The position numbers and the translations under genes are program-made. A DNA stretch of 64,000 nt from an uncultured Verrucomicrobiae bacterium (GTDB taxonomy: Bacteria > Verrucomicrobiota > Verrucomicrobiia > Palsa-1439), in the NCBI GenBank assembly GCA_963712025.1, contig CAVQGJ010000011.1, positions 455,929 to 519,928 on the forward strand, read 5' to 3'. Below the pieces are notes generated by a model. That model did not search any database, was not told where the DNA came from, and was given only the letters and a program-made list of their open reading frames with translations. Positions 16,637-32,019 of the stretch are shown here, piece by piece; the stretch's first letter is position 1; each line of letters starts with the position of its first letter.

Positions 16637-17854
16637 TCACTTTCCAATTCCCGACGTGATGGAGAATACCGCCATCAATATGCTCATGACGATACCGCCG
16701 ACGACAACCGCCATGATAATGATAATCACGGGCTCAAGCAACGTCGTGAATATCTTCAGCATCCGCGAGAGTTCCTGCTCGTAGGCGTCGGCGATATTCT
16801 TGAGCGCGGGCACGACCGCGCCGCTCTCCTCCCCGACCGCCAGCATGTCGATGAGCAACGGCGGGAACACCTTGCCCTTGCTGAGCGGTTGGCTGATGCT
16901 TGTGCCGTCGGTCACCCGGGTGCGCGCCTCGCGAATCTCGTTCGCGATGACGCGGTTGGTCATGGTGTCCTCGACAATCTGCAGGGCCGTGAGCACGGGC
17001 ACGCCGTTTTCCAACAGCGTCGCCAGGGTCCGCGCGAACTGGGCCAGCGCGTTGGCCATCAGGATGTTCCCGAAGACCGGCAGCCGCAACTTCAGGACGT
17101 CGAGCGCCAACTTCCCCTCCGGGGTTCGGGCGCGAATCCGATAGACCGTCACCCCCGCGACAGCCAGAAGAACCCCGATCCACCAATAGGCCACGAACTT
17201 GTCGCTGATCCAGATGAGGCACCGGGTCGGCAATGGCATGGTGGTGCCCATTTCCTTGAACATGGCCGAGAACCGCGGCACCATGACCAGCATGAAGAAA
17301 ATAATCGTGCAGATGCCGACCGCGACAATAATCAACGGGTAAATCAGGGCGCCAACAACTTTCTCGCGCACCTCGGCCATCTGCTCCTGATGTTTTCCCA
17401 GACGCAGGAGCACGTCGTCCAAAGAGCCACTGGCTTCACCCGCCTTGATCAGGTTCACAAAGAAGCGGGAGAAAACCTTGGGGTGCTTCGACAGCGAATC
17501 CGACAGGCTCTCGCCCTGGACGATGCCATTCCGCAATTCACTCAGGATGGCCCCCAGCGCCCTCTTTTGCGACCGTCGTTCCAGGGTGCCAAGCGCCTGG
17601 CTCAGCGACATACCGGATTTCAGGAGACTGGACAATTGCTGGGTGAACATGAGCACATCACGGGACTTGACCCGGTTGCCCAAGCTGCTGGCCTTGTCCT
17701 GGGCCAGTTGATCCGCCTCGGCCGAATCCACCGCCAGCGGGAAGAACCCCAGTTTGCTCAGCTCCGCCAATGCCGCGCGACGGTCGCCCGCAGCGAGAGA
17801 CCCGTTCACGACTTCGCCAGCGCGCGTCTTGGCTTTGTATTGGAACGTCGGCAT
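16637..17854 (-). CDS. gspF: type II secretion system inner-membrane platform protein GspF
   Basis: 405 aa; duplicated GspF/PilC domain architecture (..LSSLLKSGMSLSQAL.. and ..LATLLENGVPVLTAL..). Confidence 0.9.
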   Translation of the reverse strand: MPTFQYKAKTRAGEVVNGSLAAGDRRAALAELSKLGFFPLAVDSAEADQLAQDKASSLGNRVKSRDVLMFTQQLSSLLKSGMSLSQALGTLERRSQKRALGAILSELRNGIVQGESLSDSLSKHPKVFSRFFVNLIKAGEASGSLDDVLLRLGKHQEQMAEVREKVVGALIYPLIIVAVGICTIIFFMLVMVPRFSAMFKEMGTTMPLPTRCLIWISDKFVAYWWIGVLLAVAGVTVYRIRARTPEGKLALDVLKLRLPVFGNILMANALAQFARTLATLLENGVPVLTALQIVEDTMTNRVIANEIREARTRVTDGTSISQPLSKGKVFPPLLIDMLAVGEESGAVVPALKNIADAYEQELSRMLKIFTTLLEPVIIIIMAVVVGGIVMSILMAVFSITSGIGK

Positions 17855-17956
17855 GTAATGGTCGTTAGTTCGACACCGAACAGGATACTTTGTTCCGCGC
17901 CGTGCTCAATCCCAAAAGAGCGGGTTGCAGCACGTTCCGCCCCTCCGCCAGGCGGC

Positions 17957-19684
17957 TCACGTGCCGGTCAGTTCTTCGTCTTCCTGCGTGACCCGCGCGA
18001 TTTCTTCCACGGTCGTCATGCCCTGGCGGACCTTGTCCCACCCGTCATCGCGGAGGGTCTTCATCCCCTGGCTGATCGCCATTTGCTTGATGGCGCTGGA
18101 CGAGGCGCGTTCGATAATCAAGGGCCGCAACGCCTCGGACATCACGAGGATTTCGTAGATGGCCGAGCGCCCCTTGAATCCGGTAAACCGGCACTCTTCG
18201 CAGCCGCGCCCCCGGTAGAACTTCACCTTGCCAATGTCCTGGGCGGGAAACCCGACCTCGTGGAGAAATTCAGGTCCGGGTTTGTACTCCTCCTTGCACG
18301 CCTTGCAATTCGTCCGGATCAGGCGCTGGGCAATCAACGCCTCGACCGACGAACTCACCAGAAACGGCTCGATGCCCATGTCGATCAACCGCGTGATCGC
18401 GCCGGGCGCGTCGTTCGTGTGGAGCGTCGAGAACACCAGATGGCCCGTCAGCGCCGCGCGAATGGCGATCTCCGCCGTTTCCAGGTCGCGCACTTCACCA
18501 ACCATGATCACGTCGGGGTCCTGCCGCAAAATGTGGCGCAGGCCGCTGGCAAACGTCAGCCCGATTTCCGACTTCACCGAAATCTGGTTGACGCCGGGCA
18601 GTTCGTATTCGACGGGCTCCTCGATGGTGATGATTCGCTGGTCAATCGAGTTGATCGTGCTCAGAAACGCGTACAACGACGTGGATTTGCCCGAACCGGT
18701 TGGCCCCGTGACGAGGATGATCCCGTGCGGCATATCAATCAGTTTGCGGATGATCTTTTCCTCCTCCTTGTTCAGGCCCAAACTCTCGAGCCCGAGAAAG
18801 ATGCTGCTGCGCGTCAGCAACCGCAAACTGACGCTTTCCCCGTAGGCGGTCGGAATGGTCGAGACACGCACGTCGATTTCCGCGCCGCTGCTGCGGACGT
18901 TGATGCGACCGTCCTGCGGGAGGCGGCGTTCGGCGATGTCCATGTTGGACATGACCTTGATGCGTGAGATGATCGCGGCCTGGAACCGTTTCAGGTGCGG
19001 CGGCACGGGCGTCTGGTGCAACACGCCGTCTACGCGATAGCGGATGCGCAGGTCGTTCTCCATCGGTTCCATGTGAATGTCGGTCGCCCGCTCCTTGTAC
19101 GCCTCCCCGATGATCTGGTTCACAAATTTGACGACGCTCGCCTCTTGGTCGCCGCTTTCCAAATCGTCCTTCGTCACTTCGGCGATCTCGTCGATGTCCA
19201 GCACGTTCTTCTGCAACAGCTCGTCCAGTGTCTCCGCGCCAACCCCGTAATAGCGTTTCAGGGCCTTGGCGATGTCGGCCTGGGTGCACAAGGCCAGTTG
19301 GACGCGCGATTTGGTCACGAGCCGGACGGCTTCGAGCATGGTGAGATTGAACGGATCATGGGCGGCCACCAGTAGCGTCCCGTTCTCGGCGCGCATCGGC
19401 ATGACGTTGTGCTGGAACACTACCTTGGTCGGGACCTTCTGGCGCGCGACCGCGTCGATCTCTTTGTCGGTGATCCGCGTGAACGGCAGGTGCAGCGCCT
19501 GGGCCAGAGCTTGGAGCAGCTTCTCTTCGGGCGCGACTCCCGATTTCACCAGCGTAGTGATGAGCGGCTGCGCGGCTGACTGCGGGGCCGACAGCGCCTC
19601 GGAAATCTGCTTTTCCGTGAAAAGTCCCGTCTGCTGAAGCAGTTGCCGCAGATCCACCGGTATTGTGTCGACAGTCGCTACCAT
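17957..19684 (-). CDS. gspE: type II secretion / type IV pilus assembly ATPase GspE
   Basis: Start moved to ATG 19684 (MVATVDTIPVDL..). Walker A VTGPTGSGKSTSLY. Tetracysteine CKACK..CEEC. GspE/PilB N-terminal domain. Confidence 0.9.
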   Translation of the reverse strand: MVATVDTIPVDLRQLLQQTGLFTEKQISEALSAPQSAAQPLITTLVKSGVAPEEKLLQALAQALHLPFTRITDKEIDAVARQKVPTKVVFQHNVMPMRAENGTLLVAAHDPFNLTMLEAVRLVTKSRVQLALCTQADIAKALKRYYGVGAETLDELLQKNVLDIDEIAEVTKDDLESGDQEASVVKFVNQIIGEAYKERATDIHMEPMENDLRIRYRVDGVLHQTPVPPHLKRFQAAIISRIKVMSNMDIAERRLPQDGRINVRSSGAEIDVRVSTIPTAYGESVSLRLLTRSSIFLGLESLGLNKEEEKIIRKLIDMPHGIILVTGPTGSGKSTSLYAFLSTINSIDQRIITIEEPVEYELPGVNQISVKSEIGLTFASGLRHILRQDPDVIMVGEVRDLETAEIAIRAALTGHLVFSTLHTNDAPGAITRLIDMGIEPFLVSSSVEALIAQRLIRTNCKACKEEYKPGPEFLHEVGFPAQDIGKVKFYRGRGCEECRFTGFKGRSAIYEILVMSEALRPLIIERASSSAIKQMAISQGMKTLRDDGWDKVRQGMTTVEEIARVTQEDEELTGT

Positions 19685-19743
19685 CACATTTTCACCTCTA
19701 CGATATGAGACACCACATTCCTTGTCAATGGCACAAGAAATCG

Positions 19744-19763
19744 GGTAGTGTCCTAATTTGAAA
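19744..19763 (+). repeat. left terminal inverted repeat GGTAGTGTCCTAATTTGAAA (flanked by TSD AGAAATCG at 19736-19743)
   Basis: Exact reverse complement of 32020-32039. The tip matches the IS1-family end consensus GGnnnTG. Confidence 0.85.
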
Positions 19764-20165
19764 ACTTCGCATAGCAGGGTCAATCAGGCCCATGGCAAGA
19801 AAAGGCCAACATTCCCCCATCCTGACCCCAGCCTTATTGACTGGAAGCGAATCGACAAGGGCATTCTGCATGAGGTGCGCGTCCTGCGAGCCAACGGCAT
19901 CGAGACGACGGAATCCTGTCAGGGCGGACACGGGCATCCGTTCCCGGAGCCTACGGTGCGATTCTGCGGTGGAGAAGCCGCCGGATGGTTTGCGCTTGGC
20001 ATCGCGATGCAAGAGCGCCTAGCGGTGAACGAGCTTCGGAGAATCTGGCGCATTATTGATGGCGTGCCCACTGGCCCGGAATGGGAAATAACATTCGATC
20101 ATCCCGGTGTCGGGCCATGCCCGGTGGATAGAGGAGACGGGAAAGCCACTTGGCGCTGGCGCTAA
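19758..20165 (+). CDS. hypothetical protein (up to 135 aa; start uncertain)
   Basis: ORF with a TTG start inside the left TIR and no early ATG. ..GIETTESCQGGHGHPFPEPTVRFCGGEAAGWF.. No recognised domain. Confidence 0.4.
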   Translation: MKTSHSRVNQAHGKKRPTFPHPDPSLIDWKRIDKGILHEVRVLRANGIETTESCQGGHGHPFPEPTVRFCGGEAAGWFALGIAMQERLAVNELRRIWRIIDGVPTGPEWEITFDHPGVGPCPVDRGDGKATWRWR

Positions 20166-20169
20166 AGCC

Positions 20170-20394
20170 CTACTTGCCTTTTCGGTCTAGCTCATTGCAA
20201 TCGTCACACAACGGTTTCCCGCCCGTACCCTTCCGTCGATTGTGCGGAGGTATCTCACTGCCCGGTCCGCATTTTGGGTTGTCGTGATGGTGTTTCTCTT
20301 TTACGGAATACCACGTATTTTTCCCGGCGTGCTTGGCGATGGAAAGCCCGCTTCCCAATCCTTTGGAGCGGTTGCCCGCTGGCTTGTTTTTCAT
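20170..20394 (-). CDS. small Cys/His-containing hypothetical protein (74 aa)
   Basis: MKNKPAGN..KHHHDNPKCGPGSEIPPHNRRKGTGGKPLCDDCNELDRKGK. Resembles a widespread family of small GTGGK..C..C proteins. Confidence 0.5.
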   Translation of the reverse strand: MKNKPAGNRSKGLGSGLSIAKHAGKNTWYSVKEKHHHDNPKCGPGSEIPPHNRRKGTGGKPLCDDCNELDRKGK

Positions 20395-20457
20395 GCGGGC
20401 TGTTATCGCGCCATGCGGACGCCTAGACAACCAGAAAAGCGAACACCCCGGCATCCA

Positions 20458-20721
20458 TCATTCCCTCTGGATGTTGACATTCGCTCCGCCATCGGAAGTG
20501 ACCACACAAATCAGCCTTCCGGTCTCCTCGCTCCTGTTGTTCTCCCATTGGACCGGACGTAAGCCTCTCCGGTCGATTTCCCATCCGAAGCCCGACTCGT
20601 GGTTTCCGTGCTCGCTGCGCACAATCCACGCGCCGCATTCGTCTTTACGCGCTTTGGCCGGGTCATGGCTTGCTACCGTATCGCCATTTCTCCACGCTTG
20701 CTCTATCAAATCCTCATCCAC
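20458..20721 (-). CDS. HNH-endonuclease-like small protein, catalytic core apparently deleted
   Basis: ..RKDECGAWIVRSEHGNHESGFGWEIDRRGLRPVQWENNRSEETGRLICVVTS. The family normally reads GWEIDH-about 15 aa-NLRPLQWENN. Confidence 0.55.
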   Translation of the reverse strand: MDEDLIEQAWRNGDTVASHDPAKARKDECGAWIVRSEHGNHESGFGWEIDRRGLRPVQWENNRSEETGRLICVVTSDGGANVNIQRE

Positions 20722-20904
20722 AGTAGCCTCCCGTGTGACACATGATTACTGGGTAGTCGAAACGCGAAGGCCCGGCCATCCAACCTGACCGGAAGCCAAG
20801 TCCGGGGGAAGGACAGCCGAGCCGTCGCAGTCAGAGCCTACGAGCCTTCCGAATTGCTGTCAACACCATCACGCAACTCAGCGGCTTGGGCTGGTAGCCG
20901 GATT

Positions 20905-21132
20905 TCATCGGCGGTTCTTCTTTCGCTTTGGAGCGGAAAAATCCCGAGCAGGCATCCACACCGCATCCATTTTCGGCTTCTTGTCCGGTGCCGACATACC
21001 GATGAGTCTCAGCGACCGGAAGGCAGCCTCCTTGTCGCGGAATGCGGCCAGCGGGCGATACTCGCCATCGTACAGGGCCGAAATCACGTACACTTTCTTC
21101 GTCGGTACGATTGGAATTAGTTGGTTGCTCAT
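20905..21132 (-). CDS. small hypothetical protein (75 aa)
   Basis: ATG 21132 lies 4 nt after the stop of the upstream TPR gene. MSNQLIPIVPTKKVYVISALYDGEYRPLAAFRDKEAAFRSL.. Confidence 0.5.
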   Translation of the reverse strand: MSNQLIPIVPTKKVYVISALYDGEYRPLAAFRDKEAAFRSLRLIGMSAPDKKPKMDAVWMPARDFSAPKRKKNRR

Positions 21133-21135
21133 GCT

Positions 21136-21741
21136 TCATCCTCCTTGGCCTTGGCGATGGTCTGTCGTCAATCCATTGCCAACACTGTCTCGCAACTCAG
21201 CGGCTTGTTGGCATGTCTCTGCTGATTCTCGGATTCGGCCAAGCCGAAACAGAATCTTGCCACGGTGGTTTATCACACGGGCCGCGTCCTTGCGCATTTC
21301 GGGATATGGATTTGCGCTCATCAATTCACGGTAGAGCCGGATGGATTCGTCCACCGTTTTCAATGCCTCATCGAACCGATTCAGTTGAAACAGCGCATCG
21401 GCTTTGGTCGATAACGCATAAGCGATGTCGATTCGGTACTGAGTAGCGCCCGCCTCGACCGCCTTCCGGTAATTGTTAATGGCGGCATCGTTGCTTGCCA
21501 CTGATTCTTCGTACTGCATAAGGCGAAACAGAACTTCGCCAGCATAGTATTGAGTCTGAGCCAAATCGGTTACGGATTCGACCCCACCATCTCGTGCGAG
21601 CCGCTCGAAAATTTCCGACGACTCATGGAATCGCTCAAGCGCCTCTTTGTAAGAATCCCCATCAATACACTTCAAGCCGTCACGGGCCGCCGCAACAGCG
21701 CCATCACGGATAGCTGCGTGGTCTTTGATAGTTTCAGCCAT
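21136..21741 (-). CDS. TPR-like helical repeat protein (201 aa), cassette A
   Basis: Paralog of 22786-23292 (shared ..VASNDAAI..AGxxxYxIxIAYALSTxADALxxLNRFxExL..). C-terminus CQQAAELRD. Confidence 0.6.
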   Translation of the reverse strand: MAETIKDHAAIRDGAVAAARDGLKCIDGDSYKEALERFHESSEIFERLARDGGVESVTDLAQTQYYAGEVLFRLMQYEESVASNDAAINNYRKAVEAGATQYRIDIAYALSTKADALFQLNRFDEALKTVDESIRLYRELMSANPYPEMRKDAARVINHRGKILFRLGRIRESAETCQQAAELRDSVGNGLTTDHRQGQGG

Positions 21742-21760
21742 GTTACATACCTCCTAGCAT

Positions 21761-22264
21761 CTAGCGGACAAAGGTGTGTCCTCCCCATCCGCGCCGGTGG
21801 CGTCGCCCAAATTCCGCCTCGGCCAGTTTGTCGCACCAATCTGTGCGGCCTGATTCAACCAGTGTGCGGATAGCTCGCGCTGCGTCGGAGTACGACTGCT
21901 CGGCGCTAACGCCACACGCCGCATTGGAGCGAGCGTCTATCAAGAATGCGATGGCCGCAGATTCGTCTGTGTCACGAGCGTTGTCCCATGTCTCGCGCCA
22001 TCCACCGTTTTTGACGCGCTCCCGACACGATGGACAAGCCCACACCCCTTCAATGCGATTAGCCTCGCGGATGTCGAGTCGGCCCGGGCAGAATTCACAG
22101 AATCGGAACGGTTGCTGTTCCAGCGCCTTCGCGCCAGCCGTGCCTAGACAGCACAAGCAAATGAATTCACTCCGACCAGCAACGGTCGGGTGTGTCTGCA
22201 TGTGATTCCATTGGCCCCGATAGAGACCGACCTTGCCGCAGAGTTGGCAGACCTGCGAACCCAT
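21761..22264 (-). CDS. Cys-rich (multi zinc-ribbon-like) hypothetical protein (167 aa), first gene of cassette A
   Basis: CQLCG..CLCC..CEFCPG..CPSC motifs. Directly preceded by structured leader copy A. Confidence 0.55.
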   Translation of the reverse strand: MGSQVCQLCGKVGLYRGQWNHMQTHPTVAGRSEFICLCCLGTAGAKALEQQPFRFCEFCPGRLDIREANRIEGVWACPSCRERVKNGGWRETWDNARDTDESAAIAFLIDARSNAACGVSAEQSYSDAARAIRTLVESGRTDWCDKLAEAEFGRRHRRGWGGHTFVR

Positions 22265-22284
22265 CTTGTCCCGTTTCCCTTCCT

Positions 22285-22466
22285 GCGATCAGGACAAACA
22301 GAAACCGCGCTCGGTCAGGAACGCGGTTCAATCTGCGTGGAGTTACTGTTCGGACGGTCATTCGCCGCCCGCACATCGACCGGAGCAACTTACTCTGGTC
22401 AAGCCACCGTGGGACTCCCGCCCCGGTTGGCAGATTCGGCTTTCACCGAATCGTTCCTGATGCTGG
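22285..22466 (-). ncRNA. candidate structured 5' leader RNA, copy A (ends in a terminator-like hairpin 22303-22328 plus a U-rich tract)
   Basis: About 85-90% identical to 24046-24257. Several hand-foldable hairpins. Promoter immediately upstream, RBS and ATG about 20 nt downstream. Confidence 0.55.
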
Positions 22467-22470
22467 CGCG

Positions 22471-22498
22471 ATTATACACCACGCCGTCGCTGAGTCAA
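22471..22498 (-). promoter_or_regulatory. sigma70-like promoter for leader A
   Basis: Minus strand TTGACT (22498-22493), 16-nt spacer, TATAAT (22476-22471). The conserved leader begins 5 nt downstream. Confidence 0.55.
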
Positions 22499-22505
22499 GC
22501 TCGGA

Positions 22506-22760
22506 TTAGAGCATCTCGACTTGATTGCTTCTTACACCATCCGCTTTTGGACTGGCAAACGGGTCTATGCGCGGCGGACAATCGAGGCGTTCAGTCTTGT
22601 TCAACAAGCCCTCGATGGTGAGAATCTGAACACGCGGATAGTCCTTGTCACTCCACAGTTTTGATGTGTAGCAGTTTGCCTCCACTGCTTCCAATTTCAT
22701 CTTCGACGTTGGCGGGTCGAGTGTGATGAGCACGCCCGCCTTGAACCCCTGATTGCCCAT
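22506..22760 (-). pseudogene. C-terminal fragment of a DNA methyltransferase
   Basis: ..KAGVLITLDPPTSKMKLEAVEANCYTSKLW..YPRVQILTIEGLLNKTERLDCPP. This is the typical C-terminus of N6/N4 methylases, and no upstream catalytic part is present. Confidence 0.55.
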
Positions 22761-23292
22761 GTCTGCCTCGCACGACTGACGAAACCTGGCGGATGGATTC
22801 CTCCACGACTGTCAACGATTCCTTGAATCGATTCAAGCGATACAAGGCATCGGCATTGGTGGACAGCGCGTAAGCAATGTGGATTTCGTACTCGCTCTGG
22901 CCTGCGTTGACCAATTCCTGCCACAACCGGATGGCCGCGTCGTTGCTGGCGACACATCCCTCGTACTTGGCGTTGTGGAAGAAGCCTTCGCCCGTGTCAT
23001 AGTGCGCCTCCGCCAAATCGCAGGCGAATTCGGCATGGCCGCGATTGACCAGCCGCTTGAATACTTTCAATCCCCTTCGGAAACACGCGAGCGCCTCTTT
23101 GTGGTGACGGTCATGGAGCAACTTCAACCCTTGCGTCATCACGTCTGCCGCGTCATTTCGCTCTTGTTCTGACACAATCTTGTCGGCCATCTGGTTAGCG
23201 AACGCCTCGAATTCGGCTTTCGTGGCACCGCCGCTAATGAATCCAAGCGGCACCATGTCCGGTGTTTGGATGAATGGGGGGTTAGGATTCAT
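22648..23292 (-). CDS. TPR-like protein, cassette B second gene, truncated and fused into the methylase remnant
   Basis: ATG 23292 (MNPNPPFIQ..). Paralogy to 21136-21741 stops after ..TVVEESIRQ (about 22786). The remaining ORF reads out of frame across the methylase fragment. Confidence 0.5.
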   Translation of the reverse strand: MNPNPPFIQTPDMVPLGFISGGATKAEFEAFANQMADKIVSEQERNDAADVMTQGLKLLHDRHHKEALACFRRGLKVFKRLVNRGHAEFACDLAEAHYDTGEGFFHNAKYEGCVASNDAAIRLWQELVNAGQSEYEIHIAYALSTNADALYRLNRFKESLTVVEESIRQVSSVVRGRHGQSGVQGGRAHHTRPANVEDEIGSSGGKLLHIKTVE

Positions 23293-24025
23293 GGTCGGTT
23301 GCGCCTCCACTCTTGACCTGAGCGTGCAATTCGGCGGCTCGCTGATAGCACGCGCTGGCCTCCGCTGCCCGATGCAGCCCCTTCAACGCATGGCCTTCGC
23401 ATCGCAGCGACCAGATGAGGACATTCTTGAATCGCTTTTCGTCGGTGGGGCCGCTTATCCCGTCCAGAGCTTCAACCGCGCCGTGAGCGCAAGTCACGGC
23501 TTCGTCAAATTGTCCACGGTTGCAAAAGATGATGCTTTTTTCCGCGAGTACCCATGCCGTCTCCTGTAGCGCGTCGGCCCGCAACGTGCCGCCAAGCAAC
23601 CGCTGGTAGACGGCCAGAGCCTCACCGAGTCTAGTCAGTGCATCGTCGAATTTTCCCGCCTTTCGGAGCGACTGGCCAATGGTAAAGAGCGTGATGCCGA
23701 ATTTCAACACCATGGGTTCACTCCATCGGTCAGACCAGTCGAGATACGCCGCGCCCACTTTGGCGAAAACGCCCAGTCCTTCGTCAAATTGGCGTGAGTG
23801 AACAAAATGCAGCGCATAGTCAAGCAGCGCGTCTACTCGTTCCGGCGGCAAATACGTAAGACCCCGATGCGCGGCAGCGCCGCCAATGATTTGGATGCCG
23901 CCGCCAATCATCTGGTCGGTGATGTCCTGAATCTCCACCTTGCTGCCGTCGGTCGTCGCCGGGTCATACTCGCCAAGGTCGGATAATCGCTTCGGTGCTT
24001 CTGACTGATTGCTGGTCCCACACAT
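23282..24025 (-). CDS. TPR-like helical repeat protein (247 aa), first gene of cassette B
   Basis: Helical repeats. The C-terminus CYQRAAELH resembles that of the other cassette proteins. Preceded by leader copy B. Confidence 0.6.
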   Translation of the reverse strand: MCGTSNQSEAPKRLSDLGEYDPATTDGSKVEIQDITDQMIGGGIQIIGGAAAHRGLTYLPPERVDALLDYALHFVHSRQFDEGLGVFAKVGAAYLDWSDRWSEPMVLKFGITLFTIGQSLRKAGKFDDALTRLGEALAVYQRLLGGTLRADALQETAWVLAEKSIIFCNRGQFDEAVTCAHGAVEALDGISGPTDEKRFKNVLIWSLRCEGHALKGLHRAAEASACYQRAAELHAQVKSGGATDHES

Positions 24026-24045
24026 GATGCACCCTGTCCTTTCTC

Positions 24046-24257
24046 GCGATCAGGACAAACAAAAACCGCGTTCGTCAGGAACGCGGTTCAAACTGCGGAG
24101 TATTTTGTTCGGGGATTCCAGTCCAGAGGGCTCTAATTGCCCAAGGAGGGAACCACTCCCGCACATCGACCGGAGCTACTCGCTCCGACCAAGCCACCGT
24201 GCGAACTCCCTCGCCGGTTGGCAGATTCGGCTTTCACCGAATCGTTCCTGATGCTGG
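24046..24257 (-). ncRNA. candidate structured 5' leader RNA, copy B (terminator-like hairpin 24064-24088 plus UUUUUGUUUGU)
   Basis: Same blocks as copy A with a 30-nt longer central hairpin. Compensatory substitutions occur in two stems. Confidence 0.55.
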
Positions 24258-24261
24258 ACAG

Positions 24262-24290
24262 AGAATATCAGGTAACAGATTCGATTGCAA
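24262..24290 (-). promoter_or_regulatory. sigma70-like promoter for leader B
   Basis: Minus strand TTGCAA (24290-24285), 17-nt spacer, TATTCT (24267-24262). Confidence 0.45.
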
Positions 24291-24296
24291 GCGAAT

Positions 24297-26691
24297 TTAG
24301 GCGGGCTGCTTTTCAGATGCTTCCCATCGCGCGCTGGACGCCTTGACCGATTCGTAGTTGGCATCAAGGCTCGGCTGTAAAAGCACAAGCGCAGCAATGC
24401 GACGGGCCATCGCCGTAACTTCTTGGACCTCCTCAACCCGCAACGAGCGGCCAAGCAGCGCATCTTCTCGGTAGCTAAGCCATTTCTTGATGACCTGATA
24501 GCCGCCGATGGTGTAATCCCATATCTGCCAACGCGCCGCGCAATCGCACCGGGAAGTAATAGGCGTCGTCGCGCAACGCATGGTCGTCGCCTAGCAACCG
24601 TGTAAAACAAAATGGCACGCCTTCAGGATTTGCCTTTCCTGTGCATCGTGTAAGCAAGAAACTGTTGCCGGGCCAACATTGCGCCCAAAGCGTAGGACGC
24701 GGTTCGTTCCAAAGCGGTCTGACCCCACTGTAATAGCAGTAGCGGGTATCGAAGGGGCGAACGAAGTATGCTCGCAAATGTGATGGCACGAACTTTTCGA
24801 CGGCAAGAATCTTATTTCTAGTCTTCCTAGCGTCAAATCGTGCCGCGTTCTCGACTAGACCACCTCCTGCTGCCGCAAGCGTTTCCCAAGTCACGTTAGG
24901 GTCACAATATCTTCTCATCCGCTGTTCAAGCGTCGCTTGGTCAGTGTCAATTAGTGTCCCGCCGCGTTTCTCCATCAGACCATTGGGCGGAGCCTGCGCG
25001 CATAATTCAGAAATCTTAGGCCACTTTGCATAGTGGTCGGCAACATTGCCCGGGACGGAACGAGAACCGATTGCTTTTCTTTGGTTCCGCTATGGCGAAT
25101 TTCTCCTCGAATTGCCAAGCACGACCAAAATATCGCCCTCATGTTTCACCTGATTGGCAGCGTCGTACTCCTGTTTCAATTCCGGCATGTTCATTTCCAG
25201 TTGTTGCAGCCGAGCCTTGCCCTCATTAGATGGCGGTTGCCAGCCGGTGAGTGAGTTCGTCAGATAAACACGGACGCGATCAGTCTCGGTGAGCGGGGCT
25301 TTCAGGTTTTGCAACAATAAGCCGATTTGAAGGTGAGAAACCACAAATGGTGCCGGTAAATCTCGAATCCAAACAGACGTTCAAGCGTTGCCTTTTTAAG
25401 CTCGTCTGGAACGGTGGCATCGCCACTATTCTCTTGGAGGGTCGCGTGAATCCTCCTGATGACTTCCAGCAAATAACCCGCCGTTCCACAACAGGGGTCA
25501 AGCACGTGGACGTGCTTGTTGGCGAATCCGTCCTCCAAATCAAGTTCTTCACGCAATATCTTGTCCACTCGCTCAACTTGGTAACGGATAATTTCTCGCG
25601 GGGTCAGCCAGACGCCAAGTTGCTTTCGTAATTCCGGGTCGAAGGCCTTTAGGAATGGCTCATAGAAGTATTGCACGGCCTGATGCTCGTCAAACCGAGC
25701 AAAGAAAGTGGTGCGCTCCACTCGGTTAAGTAGGTTTTCCGTCCACCCTAGGACTTCCGTAAGACCAAGAGGTTTCAATTTGGACGGCGAGGAAACCTGT
25801 TGAAACAACGCTTGGATAACGGGCAGCCTGAGATAATCGACGCACTCCCGCCAGCGAAAGTCATTTTTCCGGGTTGGATTTTCCTTGTGCCATAGAACCC
25901 ACCCGGAGAACACGCCATAGAAAAGCGTTTGCACAAGTGTCGAATGGAAAAAGTGTTGAGCTTCTTCATCCGAGAACTTCATACCCAGTCCTTCTTCCAA
26001 TGCTGTTCGCGTTGAGGCCAATGCTGGCAAATCGGCCTGCTGTTCGACATGGATGCGAGCATCGCGAGCGTAGGACGCGAGAAACCAAGCGACCATTTCT
26101 GGTTCAATTATCGTGGAGGAATTGAGCATCACCCGCTTCAAGTATTCTGCTATCAATTCCCCATGACGCTCTGCCGTCTTGCGAGCATGGTCAGTAGCTC
26201 TCCAAAAATCATCCTCGTTGGTTGCCAAGGAGTAGGTCTCCAGTTCTACTGGCTTTCCATTCGTGTCACGTCCAACCAAGAGAAAGCTCCAGAAATTTGT
26301 CACCAATACTTGACCGTATTTTCCCAAGTACCGTATGACCTGCTCGCCCTTCGCCACATCCCGCAGAGATTCTCCGGCGGGTTTGGCTTCGATTACTCCG
26401 CGGTCGGGGTCCAACTCAGCTAATGGAGGCACGGCTTGGTTTTGTTTGAGCAAAGATGTCGTGAATAATCCGAAGTCGGGAATTCCTTTGCCGTGGTTCT
26501 TCGGATGGTTGATGGAGGTGATCTTAGGTTTGAGTGTGTCGCCAATTGTATTCAGTAGATCGGAGAGAGCCGGGTATCCTGAAGTTTCGTCCGTACCTGC
26601 TCCACGAATTGACTGCACGCGGTTGAGATAGCGTTCTAGCGCCTCGGTAAACTTCGACGTAGTGGTTTTTTCAGGTTTCATCGTCATCATC
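24297..26691 (-). pseudogene. MmeI-like type IIG restriction-modification enzyme remnant (several frame breaks plus an internal deletion of the NPPY region)
   Basis: N-terminal PD..EAK nuclease-like motif (GIPDFGLF..RGVIEAKP). SAM motif I VLDPCCGTAGYL. ..GFEI|LPAPFVVSHLQIGLLLQNL.. ILVVLGN is followed directly by FEEKFAIAEPKKSNRFSFRP. Type-ISP-like C-terminal domain ..WDYTIGGYQVIKKWLSYRE. The pieces lie in ORFs 25302..26879, 25090..25344, 24475..24975 and 24297..24581. Confidence 0.65.
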
Positions 26692-26961
26692 ATCCCACGG
26701 GTCCGGGTAATACCCGGTGTCGTCAGCAATCGCCTTGCTGACACGTTCCGGTATCGAGCCATCCTTGCAAAACTGTCCGGCTTCCTCTGCGGTGACTGGA
26801 ATGGCATCGTTCCATTCACCGACTGTGCCCTTCCAGGGTTTCCACTCGCCGTTGTCGAAAGTGAGTATGCCCCCGCCATCCCTCATCGGCTCTGGGTCGA
26901 TTAACTGGCGAGCGCGGGTTATTGAATATCTGCCATATAGGTCATCGCCCATGCGAGTCAC
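26671..26961 (-). CDS. small hypothetical protein with acidic tail (96 aa)
   Basis: Its start overlaps the upstream gene's stop by 4 nt, and its own stop overlaps the start of the RM remnant. Ends ..YYPDPWDDDDDET. Confidence 0.5.
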   Translation of the reverse strand: MTRMGDDLYGRYSITRARQLIDPEPMRDGGGILTFDNGEWKPWKGTVGEWNDAIPVTAEEAGQFCKDGSIPERVSKAIADDTGYYPDPWDDDDDET

Positions 26962-28067
26962 GAAGCCTGCTTGTCCAACTGTTTCACCCGGTTCTTTAGC
27001 TCGACTTCACGCGCGGCCCATTCCTTGCCGAGCGCCGCGTGCTCCAAGCAGTCAAATAATTCTTCGCTGGTCAAACCACCGTTGCCTAGCAACTTGCCCA
27101 CCGCTTCCCGGTCGCGCTCGACAGCCAACTGCATTTGTTCGAGGTCTTTCACGCCCGCGAACGTCTGCTTGCGGATGGATAGCAGGGTGTCCTTCACCCG
27201 TTCCAACAGGTCGAGATTGCGCAGGAATTTCTCGACGACCAGATTCACCGCGTCCAGCCGGACCGCCAACGTCTTGCCATCTTTCTCGGCTTGCGCTCGT
27301 TCAATGACCATGCGACGCGCCAGCAAGTAGGCGATACGCAGTGGCTCGAAATTGTACCGGGCGCGATCAGTGATGGCCACGAAGCCGCGTTCCTCGAAAT
27401 ACCGTAGTGACCCGACCTCACTTTTGATGGCATCCTTCGCCGTCGCGTCGTCAAGTACGATGATTTGCTCGTCCGACTTTCGGTTGGCCTTCATTTCCAA
27501 CAATTGCGATAACACCGTGTCACCATCCGCGACCACGGCCCGCTTCGCAATCGTACCGAGAGCCATTCCGACTACCAATTTACTTTCGACAGCGATGATT
27601 CGCGGCGACGGCAAGCGAGGGTCGTTGACGGTCACGAGAATATCGCCGGTCTTATTCAGTTCATCCTCAGCCGTCGCGCCGGTAAGCGCCACGGTGTCAG
27701 CTAGTTTTTCGGCTCGAATGATGTCTTTGAGCACGTCGCTGTATTCGACTTCCGCCTCCGCGCCTTTGCGGGTCGTACCGGCCAGAATCTCGCGGTTCTT
27801 ATAGAGCAGTTTGAGGCTTTCGAGTTGCACACCAAGCTCGTCCTCAGTGCGGGCAAGGAACGCGCTTACCCGGTCCTCCATGAGCGCCAGTGACCCGATG
27901 CCGACGGCCTTCCGTACTGCATCGGCGCGGTCGTCGGCCTTGGTGTTGGACAGGTATTCAAACACCAACGGATGCGTGAGCGTGAGGTGGTCAACGACGA
28001 CGGACTTGCTCTCCGCGTCCATCGTGACCTTTTCCTTGTCCGGCACTTTCGCTGGTTGCTTGCTCAT
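26958..28067 (-). CDS. coiled-coil protein with PD-(D/E)xK-like nuclease motif (DUF2130/RmuC-like pattern)
   Basis: 369 aa. ..TRKGAEAEVEYSDVLKDII..TGDILVTVNDPRLPSPRIIAVESKLV.. (D..ExK spacing). Long helical N- and C-terminal regions. Confidence 0.55.
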   Translation of the reverse strand: MSKQPAKVPDKEKVTMDAESKSVVVDHLTLTHPLVFEYLSNTKADDRADAVRKAVGIGSLALMEDRVSAFLARTEDELGVQLESLKLLYKNREILAGTTRKGAEAEVEYSDVLKDIIRAEKLADTVALTGATAEDELNKTGDILVTVNDPRLPSPRIIAVESKLVVGMALGTIAKRAVVADGDTVLSQLLEMKANRKSDEQIIVLDDATAKDAIKSEVGSLRYFEERGFVAITDRARYNFEPLRIAYLLARRMVIERAQAEKDGKTLAVRLDAVNLVVEKFLRNLDLLERVKDTLLSIRKQTFAGVKDLEQMQLAVERDREAVGKLLGNGGLTSEELFDCLEHAALGKEWAAREVELKNRVKQLDKQAS

Positions 28068-28381
28068 TTGCGCCCTTCTTTCTCTTTGATCTCACTGACG
28101 ATGGCCGCTTGTACCGCCTTTTGCGGCGTGTCTATCGGCGGCACTCCCAACACGGCCACGTACTTCGTCTTTTCGTCCTGTGCGCCGTCCAGATGGCTCC
28201 ACGCATAACATCGCTTGGCCTTCGGATGGCCGACCAAATCGAACACTTCCACGATACCGCGCCATGCTGTCTTGCCCTGAAAGACTTCATGCACCGGCAC
28301 GGATTCGATGTGCTTGGAATCGCAGCCGTGCAGCTTGCCGATCACGGCCCGCAGTTCTTCGACGTATTCAGGATTCGCCAC
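28064..28381 (-). CDS. small conserved hypothetical protein (105 aa)
   Basis: MANPEYVEELRAVIGKLHGCDSKHIESVPVHEVFQGKTAWRGIVEVFDLVGHPKAKRCYAWSH.. Its start overlaps the transposase stop by 14 nt. Confidence 0.55.
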   Translation of the reverse strand: MANPEYVEELRAVIGKLHGCDSKHIESVPVHEVFQGKTAWRGIVEVFDLVGHPKAKRCYAWSHLDGAQDEKTKYVAVLGVPPIDTPQKAVQAAIVSEIKEKEGRK

Positions 28382-29198
28382 AGCGTTCTATCAGTTCCGC
28401 AACCGTCCACTGGCTGCTTTCCACGCCTGCCGCTTGTGCGGGAGTCATGCGAATAGCCCCATGCGATTTGCAGAAATTATAGTACGCAAAACTCAGCGCG
28501 ACCGCAGCCTTAAAATTCGGCAGCTTCTTGCTAAAGGCGTTGGTCAACCGGGTGAGGCGTCGGCAGTGCATCCGTAGAGTGTGATTCTGTTTCTCGACAT
28601 GCGAGGTTGTGATTCGGGCAACCAGTGGGTTGCCTTGGATAATTTTCCTTTCGACTTCCACGACCTCTGCCGGGCTGTACCGGCTCGCCGCTTCCTTCGT
28701 GAGATTCGTGACGGAGTAGGTTTTTACAATTTGCCCATAATCGACTTCGCTGCCGAACCCGTAATCGACAGCTTCGGGATAAGTACCAAGAGCGTCTGAC
28801 GAAAGCTGGACGCGATTCGCCAGCCGTCCAGCCAAATCATCCATGAATCGCCGTGCAAAATACCGGTCGCGCTGGCCCACGACAAAGGCAGGAATCAATT
28901 TAGTATCGCAGTCCAAGGCAATCCATGTCCAAACATCGCCATACACGCGCGCCCGTGCCGCGTTCTTTCGCTTGGCTCCAATGAAGCCCCAAATTTCATC
29001 AACTTCGACGTTGCGGCATGGCAGGTTGACCATTTTCGCATCCATGATGGCCTCACAGGCAGTGCCAACGCGGAGGCCTAGCCTCATAATCGTATCCCTG
29101 TGGATGCCCGTCATCCGCTCAATGGAGCGGATGGAATTGCCTTCGGCCAAAGCGCCGATCACCACCGCCTGTTTGTCTGGTTTCAAGTTGTTTGCCAT
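28368..29198 (-). CDS. IS1-family transposase (single-ORF type)
   Basis: 276 aa. N-terminal HTH (EGNSIRSIERMTGIHRDTI). DDE region VEVDEIWGFIGAKRKN..VWTWIALD..LSSDALGTY..TSHVEKQNHTLRMHCRRLTRLTNAFSKK..YYNFCKSH. Confidence 0.8.
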   Translation of the reverse strand: MANNLKPDKQAVVIGALAEGNSIRSIERMTGIHRDTIMRLGLRVGTACEAIMDAKMVNLPCRNVEVDEIWGFIGAKRKNAARARVYGDVWTWIALDCDTKLIPAFVVGQRDRYFARRFMDDLAGRLANRVQLSSDALGTYPEAVDYGFGSEVDYGQIVKTYSVTNLTKEAASRYSPAEVVEVERKIIQGNPLVARITTSHVEKQNHTLRMHCRRLTRLTNAFSKKLPNFKAAVALSFAYYNFCKSHGAIRMTPAQAAGVESSQWTVAELIERCGES

Positions 29199-29226
29199 AT
29201 CGCACCTCTATTCTTTATGGGATTTA

Positions 29227-29272
29227 GTGTACTACAGAAAGTAATGAAGTCAACAACTATTTTGTAGTACAC
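29227..29272. promoter_or_regulatory. operator-like palindrome between the divergent transposase and RHH genes
   Basis: GTGTACTACA (29227-29236) and TGTAGTACAC (29263-29272), a perfect 10-bp inverted repeat with a 26-nt spacer. The core GTAGT resembles the element TIR tip. Confidence 0.45.
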
Positions 29273-29290
29273 AAACTTTTCTTTTGTGCT

Positions 29291-29473
29291 ATGCTTCCTT
29301 CCATGAGCAAACGCATGGGACGGCCCAAGCTGCCCAAGGACGAAGCCCGCAGCATCGTCTTCCAGATTCGTATTTCGCCAAAGGAGCAACGGCGCTTCAA
29401 GGCAGCGGCCCGCAAGGCTGGCAAAGAACCGACCGAATGGGCCAGAAACGCCTTGCTTTCTGTGGCCCTTTAG
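29291..29473 (+). CDS. small ribbon-helix-helix-like DNA-binding protein
   Basis: MLPSMSKRMGRPKLPKDEARSIVFQIRISPKEQRRFKAAARKAGKEPTEWARNALLSVAL. The beta-strand then two-helix pattern is typical of the CopG/Arc type. Confidence 0.5.
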   Translation: MLPSMSKRMGRPKLPKDEARSIVFQIRISPKEQRRFKAAARKAGKEPTEWARNALLSVAL

Positions 29474-29484
29474 CGTATAGAGAT

Positions 29485-29578
29485 TGGCGGAAGCTGAGGG
29501 AGTCGAACCCCCATCGCTGGTCAGAGCGAGACCATTGGGGTGTAAAGTCCAGTTGCGCACCGGCGCGGGTCAGCTTCC
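29485..29578 (-). tRNA. selC-like (tRNA-Sec / allo-tRNA-like) gene with a non-canonical anticodon arm; possibly a pseudo-tRNA
   Basis: GGAAGCUGACCCGCGCCGGUGCGCAACUGGACUUUACACCCCAAUGGUCUCGCUCUGACCAGCGAUGGGGGUUCGACUCCCUCAGCUUCCGCCA. It has an 8-9 bp acceptor stem, a T arm with UUCGACU, a D stem with the 4-nt loop CGGU, a long variable hairpin and an encoded CCA. Confidence 0.5.
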
Positions 29579-29913
29579 AAAAGTGATAGCCTACGCGGGC
29601 CGTGCACAAGATCAGTGGAAGCTGAGTGTGCGCGGCCCGCCCTTTTGTATCCTCGCGCTTGTCCCGGACCGGCCATGCCAGGGGGCGCTCGCGACTAATA
29701 CTTGGTGCATCATGGCGATTTCCTTTCACACGCGCACCATATCGAATCGTGCCTGACCACGTAAGAGACCGGATGGAAAGCGGCCCGTGGCGTTCACGGG
29801 ACACGCTGCCGAGCGGGGGAAGTCTCAGGGGGGACAAGAAGGGGGTGCCTTGGTGTCCCCAAGGGGCTACTGAGGGGGTGCCTTGATGACCCTGCGGGAA
29901 AGCGGACGCGAGA

Positions 29914-30501
29914 CTACTGCGGCGGCCCGCGTTGGAGAAACCTCAGTCCAATCCGATGGCAAAGTTTCTTCGTGCGTCCAATATCACCAACAATGCTCTT
30001 TTGAAGTTTGGAACACAGCCACTCGTGGACTTGTGGAATGCTCCGCAGAGCATTGACCTCGGTTTGGTGTTGCAGGAGTATCTGGTAGATCACCAGAGCC
30101 GTTGTCGCCGCTTTTGGAAGGCGCTCAGGATGCCGGTCATATTTCTGGAAGCATTTAATGCCGTGAAGGAATCCCCGGATGAAGTCCTCGCTTTCTTCCA
30201 GAGTCGAATTCGTGAGCGTGAGCCGTACCGTCGTACCGATAATCACCAGCGTTGACTGGCATTTATCCACCACCAGCTTCGCCTGTTTTGGCGATAGCTT
30301 TTTCATTCCGAGACTGCGACGGTCACGAATGCGGGCGAATTGCGCGAACTGGTATCCCTGCATGGCCCCTTGCCGGAACTTGGTTGATGGTTTTGGGCCG
30401 AGTGGAACGTACATCCGAAAGATGAGATTCGTGACGTTGCCCACCCAAAGCGGCTCCTTGGGGTCCGGCCAAGTGGCGTTCGTTTCGCGTTCCGGTGTCA
30501 A
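29914..30501 (-). CDS. hypothetical protein (up to 195 aa)
   Basis: ORF only. A possible internal start is MKKLSPKQAKL. No recognised domain. Confidence 0.4.
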   Translation of the reverse strand: MTPERETNATWPDPKEPLWVGNVTNLIFRMYVPLGPKPSTKFRQGAMQGYQFAQFARIRDRRSLGMKKLSPKQAKLVVDKCQSTLVIIGTTVRLTLTNSTLEESEDFIRGFLHGIKCFQKYDRHPERLPKAATTALVIYQILLQHQTEVNALRSIPQVHEWLCSKLQKSIVGDIGRTKKLCHRIGLRFLQRGPPQ

Positions 30502-30615
30502 CGCGAGTCACGTTACTACTTCGGTCGCAGGAAAGGCAATTGCACTCTTGCGGTCAGAGTTTGCGCGTGACTACATCACCGGGAGTTGATATAAGCACGA
30601 CGTGGCAGGAATTCC

Positions 30616-31062
30616 ATGAAAGCTGAAATCTTTACCCTTTGCGATGCAGCAACAGCAGATGCGACAACGGGCAAGTTAAACATTCTCGGGAGTTTCGACC
30701 GATTTTGGTTTCCTCAGATGCCCGCAATGACACCGTTCTTTGCCTTGGCAGCCAAAATCCGATTCACGCAGAGCGAGGAAGGAAACAAGAAAATTCGGAT
30801 TCTGTTTATGGATACTGACGGAAAACCGGTAATACCTAAGCTTGAGGTCGTGGCACCAGTTCGTTTTGCACCAAACGATACGACTGCCACTTTGCAGTTT
30901 GCGATGATACTTCCACCGCTAAAACTAGCGAGTTTTGGGGACTACTCGATTGAGTTATCTGTAGACCAGACGGAATTGGCGACGTGCCAGTTGTCTGTGC
31001 GACAATCTCCCCCGTCGCCCCTGTCACCGCAACAATTCCAACCGCCGCCGCCGCCTTCATAA
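30616..31062 (+). CDS. hypothetical protein (148 aa) with Pro-rich tail
   Basis: MKAEIFTLCDAATADATTGKLNILGSFDRFWFP.. ATG preceded by GGAA. Lower GC than the core genome. Confidence 0.5.
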   Translation: MKAEIFTLCDAATADATTGKLNILGSFDRFWFPQMPAMTPFFALAAKIRFTQSEEGNKKIRILFMDTDGKPVIPKLEVVAPVRFAPNDTTATLQFAMILPPLKLASFGDYSIELSVDQTELATCQLSVRQSPPSPLSPQQFQPPPPPS

Positions 31063-31324
31063 GAAAACCCCTCGTGCTATACCAGCCAACGAATCTCCGT
31101 GGATACGGTATAGCCGCGCATGTCTGATTGTCAACCAGTTTGATGCAGACTGGCATTTGAGAAATCTCGTGTACCACCAGAATGGTCGCGCCAATGACCA
31201 GAAGAAGGAGCGGGACCCAAAGCTGTCCGCTTCTGTCAGCGAGCATCATGACCGGAGCCGTTACAGCCGCCCAAGCCAGCGAAAAACGCCAGACGAACCG
31301 ATTATTGCTTTTGAGAATACTCAT
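30836..31324 (-). CDS. putative small membrane protein; 3' end uncertain (the ORF runs antisense into 30616..31062)
   Basis: N-terminal about 85 aa have two hydrophobic helices (FSLAWAAVTAPVMML, LWVPLLLLVIGATILVV). The remainder is probably not translated as such. Confidence 0.3.
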   Translation of the reverse strand: MSILKSNNRFVWRFSLAWAAVTAPVMMLADRSGQLWVPLLLLVIGATILVVHEISQMPVCIKLVDNQTCAAIPYPRRFVGWYSTRGFLMKAAAAVGIVAVTGATGEIVAQTTGTSPIPSGLQITQSSSPQNSLVLAVEVSSQTAKWQSYRLVQNELVPRPQA

Positions 31325-31574
31325 TTTTCAAGTCCCTATATACCTTCAGCACTATTCTAGCCACAATTGCAGTAAATACAAGCGCGTCCGTGATGGCGGA
31401 AATGCTCACCAAATACTCGATTAGCAATATGACGTGTGACGGTTCATCATACCGCATCGCCAGTTTCTCAATGAGAGCAAGACCAACTGCGAACACAAGC
31501 AGGCACAGGCAGAGAATGAATAGTTCAAACGAGTCCCTGATGGTCTGCTTTGTCCCTGCCGAGAGAATCTCCAC
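31302..31574 (-). CDS. small membrane protein (90 aa), AT-rich
   Basis: Hydrophobic helices (LFILCLCLLVFAVGLALI; SISAITDALVFTAIVARIVL). Overlaps the next ORF's start by 23 nt. Confidence 0.4.
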   Translation of the reverse strand: MEILSAGTKQTIRDSFELFILCLCLLVFAVGLALIEKLAMRYDEPSHVILLIEYLVSISAITDALVFTAIVARIVLKVYRDLKNEYSQKQ

Positions 31575-31675
31575 ACGGTTTGTTGTACCGCAAGGTCATC
31601 ATTTACGGAAGCCAAATCAGACGCGGCCCGTTTCCCGTTGACGCGATTCACGCACTGGTGCGATGATGCCGCACC

Positions 31676-31981
31676 ATGAATCCACCGCTCCCGTCCAGAT
31701 TAGGCAAGACATCGCACCGGAAGAACATTCATGGCCACCCGATGGTCTATACTGTGATTGACGAGGATGTATTTATCGCTGCGACAAATCCGAAGAAGGC
31801 GTTTGCGATTCATAAACTGAAATCTACTGATGGCCGAGAGAATTTTCGCATCGGTTACTATATGATTGCTGAACGTCCACGAGTGAAGGGGAAGTGGGCA
31901 TGGGGTCAATTTGCGCCAACAATGTCCAAGGAAGAAATGATAGCTATTTTTGACCGAGCCAAGGCAAAGGGCTGGATTTGA
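31676..31981 (+). CDS. small hypothetical protein (up to 101 aa)
   Basis: ..MVYTVIDEDVFIAATNPKKAFAIHKL..FRIGYYMIAERPRVKGKWAWGQFAP.. Last ORF before the right TIR. Confidence 0.45.
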   Translation: MNPPLPSRLGKTSHRKNIHGHPMVYTVIDEDVFIAATNPKKAFAIHKLKSTDGRENFRIGYYMIAERPRVKGKWAWGQFAPTMSKEEMIAIFDRAKAKGWI

Positions 31982-32019
31982 GGCGAAAGTAGCCCAACCA
32001 CTCACGTCAAGAGCCGGAA

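Follow-up and report, generated by a model that had tools for sequence, protein, structure and literature searches.

A leader RNA duplicated in a Verrucomicrobiae genome is very probably a sub-threshold SAM-I/IV riboswitch controlling uncharacterised genes

What kind of RNA stands twice in front of uncharacterised genes in an uncultured Verrucomicrobiae bacterium, and what would it make those genes respond to? Within the window, by which we mean the whole 64,000-nt (64 kb) stretch of DNA that was analysed, a sequence-only reading had marked out a promoter-to-terminator leader on the minus strand upstream of a Cys-rich gene (copy A) and a second version of it nearby (copy B). The promoter that it had proposed, TTGACT-16-TATAAT, is present at 22498-22471 on the minus strand and matches 11 of 12 consensus positions, with P1 of the RNA starting ~8 nt 3' of the -10 element; two relatives, L125 and L127, carry TTGTAA-17-TATAAT immediately 5' of P1. 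The hairpins that had been folded by hand were each located on the minus strand (GAUUCGG/CCGAAUC; GCCA(A)CCG.../CGGUGGC with loop GGGAGU; CGGGCGG/CCGUCCG), as was the 9-bp hairpin, whose 3' end is GCUCCGGUC. The copy A leader folded at -80 kcal/mol, compared with -61.5 ± 4.4 kcal/mol for dinucleotide shuffles (z = -4.3), and 0 of 200 shuffles were as stable. The fold exceeds chance, as judged from this stability relative to shuffles and from the covariation of its helices among relatives. The promoter and the aptamer parts of copy A are listed below (R1 is a covariance model built from relatives).

22471-22498, minus strand: sigma-70-type promoter, copy A (TTGACT-16 nt-TATAAT)
22339-22463, minus strand: SAM-I/IV-type aptamer, copy A (RF01725 38.5 bits, R1 117.2 bits, covariation)
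22463-22459 with 22377-22373, minus strand: P1, copy A
22458-22455, minus strand: J1/2 (AGGA), copy A
22454-22432, minus strand: P2, copy A
22431-22403, minus strand: P3, copy A
22400-22378, minus strand: P4, copy A, the 9-bp hairpin
22371-22351, minus strand: hairpin 3' of P1, copy A
22418-22414 (GGAGU) with 22343-22339 (ACUCC), minus strand: pseudoknot, copy A

At Rfam gathering thresholds there was no match in the 64 kb window. When Rfam was searched in E-value mode, copies A and B both aligned to the full RF01725 (SAM-I/IV) model, positions 1-99 of 99, with scores of 38.5 bits (E = 5e-4) and 33.1 bits (E = 8e-3), respectively, neither of which attains the gathering score of 41.1 bits; RF01725 was the best-scoring model within the SAM-I clan. 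The shortfall is chiefly due to P4 and the 3' hairpin, whose extra length in the window copies is scored by Rfam as insertions. Among 18 close relatives, three (L004, L055 and L022) exceeded the gathering score with 44.2-45.6 bits, and the group to which the window copies belong is therefore continuous with the curated family. The RF01725 core is present in both copies, including the CAUC...AGA-type J1/2, the GCCAACC/GGUGGC asymmetric P3 bulge and the GAUG closing P1, and the sole deviation in it is an A-to-G change at the second J1/2 position (AGGA versus consensus AAGA), which is also seen in some canonical alphaproteobacterial SAM-I/IV RNAs. The first P2 pair is changed from G-C to A-U, a compensatory replacement. 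The sequence-only reading had recognised no riboswitch class here, and the novelty that this implied does not hold given two full-length RF01725 matches just under the gathering score; it had also regarded a confident Rfam hit to a known family as contradicting its proposal; what was found is in substance such a hit, spanning all of RF01725, but under the curated cut-off.

SAM-I/IV ('SAM-I-IV-variant', RF01725) has a plain P2, in which the internal loop or kink-turn seen in SAM-I and SAM-IV is missing (Weinberg et al. 2010, PMC2864571); it also has a P4, and in SAM-IV a PK-2 joins the P3 loop to the 3' tail (PMC6890682). The window RNA is like SAM-I/IV in its P1-P2-P3-P4 junction, SAM-I-type core, hairpin 3' of P1 and 3'-tail pseudoknot, in a P2 that is an uninterrupted 7-8 bp hairpin, and in its P4, which is shorter in canonical alphaproteobacterial members and lies in the same place. 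It departs from canonical SAM-I/IV in its sub-cut-off score, AGGA J1/2, PVC sub-lineage and non-SAM genes. With SAM-I (RF00162) it shares the ligand-pocket nucleotides and the four-helix junction including P4 (PMC6890682), but it lacks the P2 kink-turn or internal loop and the pseudoknot between the P2 loop and J3/4, and it has the 3'-tail PK-2. With SAM-IV (RF00634; cryo-EM, PMC6890682) it shares the core and a PK-2 after the hairpin 3' of P1, whereas SAM-IV has no P4 and a split P2a/P2b with PK-1 and the window RNA has P4 and an undivided P2. On these alignments we take the leader to be a genuine, though sub-threshold, member of SAM-I/IV and not a new riboswitch class.

The proposed duplication was confirmed, with copy B at about 24046-24259 and the similarity of the two copies extending from about the transcription start to just short of the start codon. 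The copy B aptamer shares its core with copy A; in upper P3 a G-C pair is replaced by C-G, a compensatory swap, and the hairpin 3' of P1 contains an insertion of ~35 nt. Because of this insertion the RF01725 alignment places the 3' tail of copy B wrongly, and the 3' pseudoknot strand ACUCC is at 24101-24097. Since the differences between copies A and B are compensatory changes, both copies appear to be under selection.

24097-24254, minus strand: aptamer, copy B (Rfam 33.1 bits, R1 107 bits, alignment to copy A)
24026-24089, minus strand: expression platform, copy B (terminator search, constrained fold, relatives)
24089-24063, minus strand: terminator stem, copy B, 11 pairs, then a U tract
24056-24049, minus strand: second motif GUCCUGAU, copy B

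When genomes were scanned with a degenerate core pattern, at least 119 loci matched, and among those listed two groups were distinguished: canonical SAM-I/IV, mostly from Alphaproteobacteria, with a J1/2 of AAGAG, and a second, PVC-type group from Verrucomicrobiota, Lentisphaerota and Planctomycetota, with a J1/2 of AGGA and longer hairpins both between P3 and the P1 3' strand and 3' of P1. The same pattern had no match in viral contigs. Covariance model R1, built from 47 PVC-phylum relatives, matched the 64 kb window at copy A (117.2 bits) and copy B (107 bits) and nowhere else. It scored 57 PVC-type RNAs at 58-124 bits and canonical SAM-I/IV at 25-47 bits, thereby separating the two groups. 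By these scores the PVC-type RNAs can be regarded as a distinct sub-lineage of SAM-I/IV that is common in Verrucomicrobiota, Lentisphaerota and Planctomycetota. In the 57-sequence R1 alignment 92.5% of cells were paired (71% in shuffles), and 28 of the 38 base pairs changed on both sides. The covariation score was 0.56 versus 0.17 for shuffles and 0.05-0.16 when partners were slid by 1-3 columns. Covarying pairs were distributed over P2 (8/8), upper P3 (4), P4 (9/9) and the hairpin 3' of P1 (7/7); P1 and the P3 base are invariant partly because the collecting pattern fixed those bases, and the covariation evidence covers the remaining helices. RNAalifold independently recovered the same five helices; its prediction has 36 pairs, of which 26 show compensatory changes.

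The P3-loop/3'-tail pseudoknot, GGAGU:ACUCC in copies A and B, consists of 5-8 contiguous Watson-Crick pairs in 52 of the 57 relatives, in which variants such as GGAGA:UCUCC, GGAGCG:CGCUCC, GGAGGG:CCCUCC, CGGGAU:AUCCCG, CAGAGA:UCUCUG and CGAGAG:CUCUCG were observed. Its fifth pair occurs in all four Watson-Crick types (GGAG-A:U, -C:G, -U:A and -G:C; 39/47 paired). In a permutation test matched loops and tails formed 5.6 bp and mismatched ones 4.4 bp, a gap that is modest because the GGAG core is common to the sequences. The pseudoknot covaries. One departure from the shared core was noted in L092:2743-2889, the second copy on its contig, which has GCCUACC instead of GCCAACC; the altered A is the bulge position that binds the SAM adenine, and this copy may be degenerate or retuned.

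As to the ligand, residues 6-8, 11-12, 44-47, 57-59 and 87 of SAM-I lie within 5 Å of SAM (PMC6890682). The candidate SAM-pocket residues are kept in copies A and B: P1 AUC, J1/2 GA, P3-bulge CAAC and UG, and the P1-3' A. We take the SAM-I residues just numbered to be P1 AUC, J1/2 GA, CAAC, UG(N) and the P1-3' A, on an alignment to the T. tengcongensis sequence. Either metH or metK lies behind 8 of the 57 leaders, 4 of these 8 being confirmed by Pfam: AGGA-type sub-lineage members precede the B12-dependent methionine synthase gene metH in L036 and L110 and the SAM synthetase gene metK in L102 (all Pfam-confirmed), and L073 also precedes a SAM synthetase gene (Pfam-confirmed), but with AAGA as its J1/2. 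Because members of the sub-lineage precede metH and metK, SAM is the most likely ligand. A SAM-I/IV architecture retuned to another ligand (SAH, or another adenosyl or sulfur metabolite) would explain the non-SAM regulon and would fit both the AGGA J1/2 in place of AAGA and the fact that most regulated genes have no SAM connection. We nevertheless consider such retuning highly improbable, because AGGA-type members precede metH and metK themselves, AGGA is found in canonical alphaproteobacterial SAM-I/IV too, every position lining the SAM pocket is kept, and AGGA is otherwise explained in that it completes complementarity to a UCCU in the expression platform.

That platform begins, in copy A, with the terminator that had been proposed. 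It is present and followed by CUGUUUGU, although its stem is longer than first drawn, at 10-11 bp (GAACCGCGUUC/GAGCGCGGUUU, 22329-22302), and ~28 nt, instead of the ~20 nt first given, separate the end of its U-rich tail from the ATG at 22264. In a terminator test both copies gave stems of 11 pairs (22329-22302 and 24089-24063) followed by a T-rich tail, that of copy A (CUGUUUGU) being interrupted. Downstream of it lies a putative sequestrator of the start site.

22293-22329, minus strand: intrinsic terminator, copy A (stem 22329-22302 plus U-rich tail)
22262-22297, minus strand: putative translation sequestrator, copy A (constrained fold; same design in relatives)
22297-22292 (UUGUCC) with 22271-22266 (GGACAA), minus strand: sequestrator stem, copy A, ending 1 nt before the AUG
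22284-22276, minus strand: Shine-Dalgarno-like AGGAAGGGA in the sequestrator loop, copy A
22264-22262, minus strand: AUG, copy A

The P1 5' strand CAUCAGGA is complementary to one motif in the terminator and to one in the start hairpin. Both complementarities had been pointed out from the sequence, the first being UCAGGAACG with CGUUCCUGA (22323-22315) in the terminator and the second AUCAGGA(A)C with GUCCUGAU (22295-22288) 3' of it, with one A bulged, and both are found in copies A and B. The suggestion that such mutually exclusive pairings amount to riboswitch or attenuator logic is likewise borne out, as the competing complementarities are conserved throughout the sub-lineage: at least one downstream complement of P1-5' within 170 nt was present in 53 of the 57 relatives, and two were present in 37. 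In many relatives with a second motif, that motif supplies the 5' strand of a hairpin whose loop contains an AGGA-rich Shine-Dalgarno-like sequence and whose 3' strand is often CGCAUCA, running into the AUG; the L007 clade has the sequestrator only, without the terminator. Copy B has a GUCCU/AGGAC hairpin over the Shine-Dalgarno sequence. Riboswitches with dual control combine a terminator with start-site sequestration, one aptamer strand having two competing downstream partners. The PVC-type leaders differ from these in that the two partners are plain repeats of one 7-8 nt motif, YCCUGRU, and in that the start region often copies P1-5' (GCAUCAUG versus GCAUCAGG), a context that is kept in copy B and of which copy A has its own version.

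Three states were compared by folding, and when computed as RNA secondary structure without pseudoknot or ligand they lay within a few kcal/mol of one another: the unconstrained minimum, in which the 5' strand pairs with the second motif, was -98.7 kcal/mol for copy A and -110.5 kcal/mol for copy B, the fold with P1 enforced was -97.0 and -103.9 kcal/mol, and the fold with the anti-terminator enforced was -91.1 and -100.3 kcal/mol, respectively. The leader would act as an OFF switch on both transcription and translation, a direction of switching that we infer from this arrangement. With SAM bound, P1, J1/2 and P3, together with the P3-loop/3'-tail pseudoknot, would hold the 5' strand GCAUCAGGAAC in the aptamer, the 10-11 bp terminator would form, and most transcripts would stop at the U tract. 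In read-through transcripts the second strand containing CCUGAU would close the start hairpin, which stops 1 nt short of the AUG and has the Shine-Dalgarno-like sequence as part of its loop. At low SAM, the freed 5' strand would first pair with CGUUCCUGA in the terminator, forming an anti-terminator, and would next pair with GUCCUGAU, opening the sequestrator hairpin, so that the Cys-rich ORF and TPR gene behind copy A and the TPR gene pair behind copy B would be expressed. Copies A and B are, in our assessment, very probably SAM-sensing SAM-I/IV riboswitches (SAM-I clan) with a conserved OFF-switch platform, SAM binding and this direction of switching being presumed.

Transcripts of the Listeria SAM riboswitches SreA and SreB act in trans as small RNAs. 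The terminated leaders of ~170 nt might do so too, a role compatible with control in cis: each copy is a self-contained promoter-to-terminator unit, and there are two in the window and several per genome in relatives. The conserved complementarities all fall within the leader itself, however, and we regard an additional trans role as unlikely.

The genes behind the two leaders have no recognisable connection with SAM or methionine metabolism.

21761-22264, minus strand: gene A, a 167-aa Cys-rich (CxxC-rich) ORF downstream of copy A
21136-21741, minus strand: second gene of operon A, a 201-aa TPR protein (cluster c6), starting 20 nt after gene A
23282-24025, minus strand: gene B1, a 247-aa TPR protein (Pfam) with a conserved N-terminal 'IQIIGG' region
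22648-23310, minus strand: gene B2, a 220-aa TPR protein, overlapping the end of B1 and syntenic with L053:2449-3342

The 201-aa TPR protein is a paralogue of the product of 22648-23310. Gene A had no homologue among 5.8 billion proteins, and an exact copy of it was found on one short Logan contig. A word-indexed protein search with B1 likewise returned only B1 itself; its homologues came via the RNA and lie behind like riboswitches in L053 (33% identity, 4e-33), L124 (45%, 4e-66) and L130 (same 90% cluster). In L053 an intact Type ISP C-terminal domain is followed by the riboswitch, two TPR genes and an AAA_5 gene; in L124 the riboswitch is followed by an HExxH protein and then the TPR protein (45% identity); and in L130 a near-identical TPR gene lies behind a copy-A-type leader (117.6 bits). 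The association of riboswitch and TPR gene is conserved in several loci, and, since L130 pairs a B1-type TPR gene with a copy-A-type leader, the leader behaves as a module.

Both units lie inside a stretch, from about 20 to 32 kb of the window, with a GC content of 0.51-0.57, compared with about 0.60-0.62 in the flanks. This stretch contains a fragmented Type ISP/IIG enzyme (Pfam: N6_Mtase at 25302-26879 and Type_ISP_C pieces at 24297-24975) and a C-terminal ORF fragment at 22506-22760 that had no Pfam match. Positions 20000-32000 of the window look like a decaying, acquired restriction-modification island. The product of 16637-17854 belongs to a cluster that bears the name type II secretion F. 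By eye, the fragment at 22506-22760 is methyltransferase-like and the ORF at 28368-29198 resembles an IS-type transposase; as read from translations, the GC-poor stretch is flanked by T2SS/T4P-type genes (16637-19783) and a UvrD-like helicase gene (32111-34126).

In such surroundings copy A could be a non-functional relic, a duplicated leader left before a chance ORF, a reading favoured by the missing homologues of gene A, by neighbours that are gene fragments (the Type ISP pieces and the 3'-terminal ORF fragment that is methyltransferase-like by eye) and by the low GC content of the region. We judge it very unlikely, because the core, pseudoknot, terminator and near-consensus promoter of copy A are all intact, and because the differences between copies A and B and between copy A and L130 keep pairing. 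Copy A moreover has its own sequestrator helix, UUGUCC/GGACAA, fitted to the start region of gene A, a TPR paralogue follows 20 nt after gene A, and related leaders in L125 and L127 precede another small Cys-rich protein. That protein is different from gene A, and a BLASTP comparison of the gene A product with the L125 protein gave no significant match (E = 0.027, in a different register), so that no homology is claimed.

Among the products encoded behind related leaders, the most frequent was an uncharacterised protein of 65-100 aa (the HHLW family), which follows 40 of the 57 PVC-type leaders (loci within L003-L120; for example L087:1139-1375 and L092:6674-6898) and carries the motif NPxHHLWNNNGTWWxHYTxHxPDxTKxRxRxSLxTxD..AR..RD. 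The family comprises at least 4,096 clusters, every one of them annotated as hypothetical. Some gave weak Pfam matches to DUF6538 (integrase N-terminal), which are the sole basis of any likeness to an integrase arm or DUF6538. An AlphaFold model (pLDDT 77) has three strands followed by a helix and had no significant match in the PDB (best E = 0.57). Many members end in -AA or -LAA, like a degradation tag. The cargo after the HHLW gene included a MoxR-type AAA_5 gene in 6 cases and a metallophosphoesterase gene in 5, and consisted mostly of proteins without a Pfam domain. In L004, L058, L061 and L087 the order was riboswitch, HHLW, a MoxR-type AAA_5 of ~500 aa (bpMoxR match), then an unknown protein and lastly an HExxH protein whose C-terminal half is VWA-like; some canonical alphaproteobacterial SAM-I/IV RNAs (L040, L084 and L096) are likewise followed by MoxR-like ATPases.

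Two further loci were observed. At L127:1867-8089 a window-type riboswitch is followed by one tight same-strand gene array encoding a 95-aa Cys-rich protein, proteins of 131 aa and 467 aa, MksE (Pfam 1e-30), a 903-aa SMC-like ATPase and a DUF2399-like protein, which resembles an MksBEFG/Wadjet module; PADLOC gave no Jet match for this MksE/SMC-like operon. At L045:1578-4441 (a sequence shared by L126 and L128) what follows a copy-A-like riboswitch is a truncated B1 N-terminus homologue that abuts a tRNA gene, a tyrosine integrase-like ORF (by reading) and a DUF3987 gene, which suggests that an integrative element cut the operon.

A general association of the riboswitches with restriction-modification genes was considered and found no support, as 100 upstream ORFs were heterogeneous by Pfam, with no more than single matches to BrxL, Type ISP and GmrSD. 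PADLOC assigned no defence family to the Cys-rich, TPR, HHLW, MoxR-like, HExxH/VWA-like or metallophosphoesterase proteins, giving only weak generic matches (E 0.0015-0.0095), to a Cas11e model in the case of the 220-aa TPR protein and to AAA-type ATPase models, and nothing relevant emerged from a literature search for SAM riboswitches in connection with PVC bacteria, integrases, phage defence or DUF6538. A defence role for the controlled genes is only a possibility.

The riboswitch and small-gene unit occurs several times per genome in L042/L058/L060 (MAG JBGTBW01), L041/L061 (one MAG) and L092 (two copies), and these repeated units, those of the window included, fit a duplicating leader cassette. 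It is conceivable, though rather improbable, that the PVC SAM-I/IV RNA is a portable 'ON when SAM is low' cassette for accessory island genes, with low SAM as the stress or infection signal that switches on conflict or survival functions. Such a cassette would extend from the transcription start to the start codon, would occur several times per genome and would not drive SAM synthesis. Its cargo would include TPR pairs by a Type ISP gene, small Cys-rich proteins, an MksE/SMC-like (Wadjet-like) operon, MoxR-type AAA and HExxH/VWA-like modules and the DUF6538-like proteins of 65-100 aa, and the signal might be, for example, methionine starvation or the destruction of SAM by phage SAM lyases.

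SAM-I/IV membership is a known quantity, and the unexplained part is the regulon of uncharacterised genes. For annotation, a whole PVC sub-lineage of SAM-I/IV lies just below the Rfam cut-off, mainly owing to its long P4 and 3' hairpin, and a dedicated model scores these RNAs at above 100 bits. Most PVC-type SAM-I/IV riboswitches would control not SAM metabolism but a large family of uncharacterised small proteins. Should SAM prove to be the ligand, this would link dark-matter genes from little-studied phyla to low SAM, a defined physiological signal, and so provide a functional handle on them.
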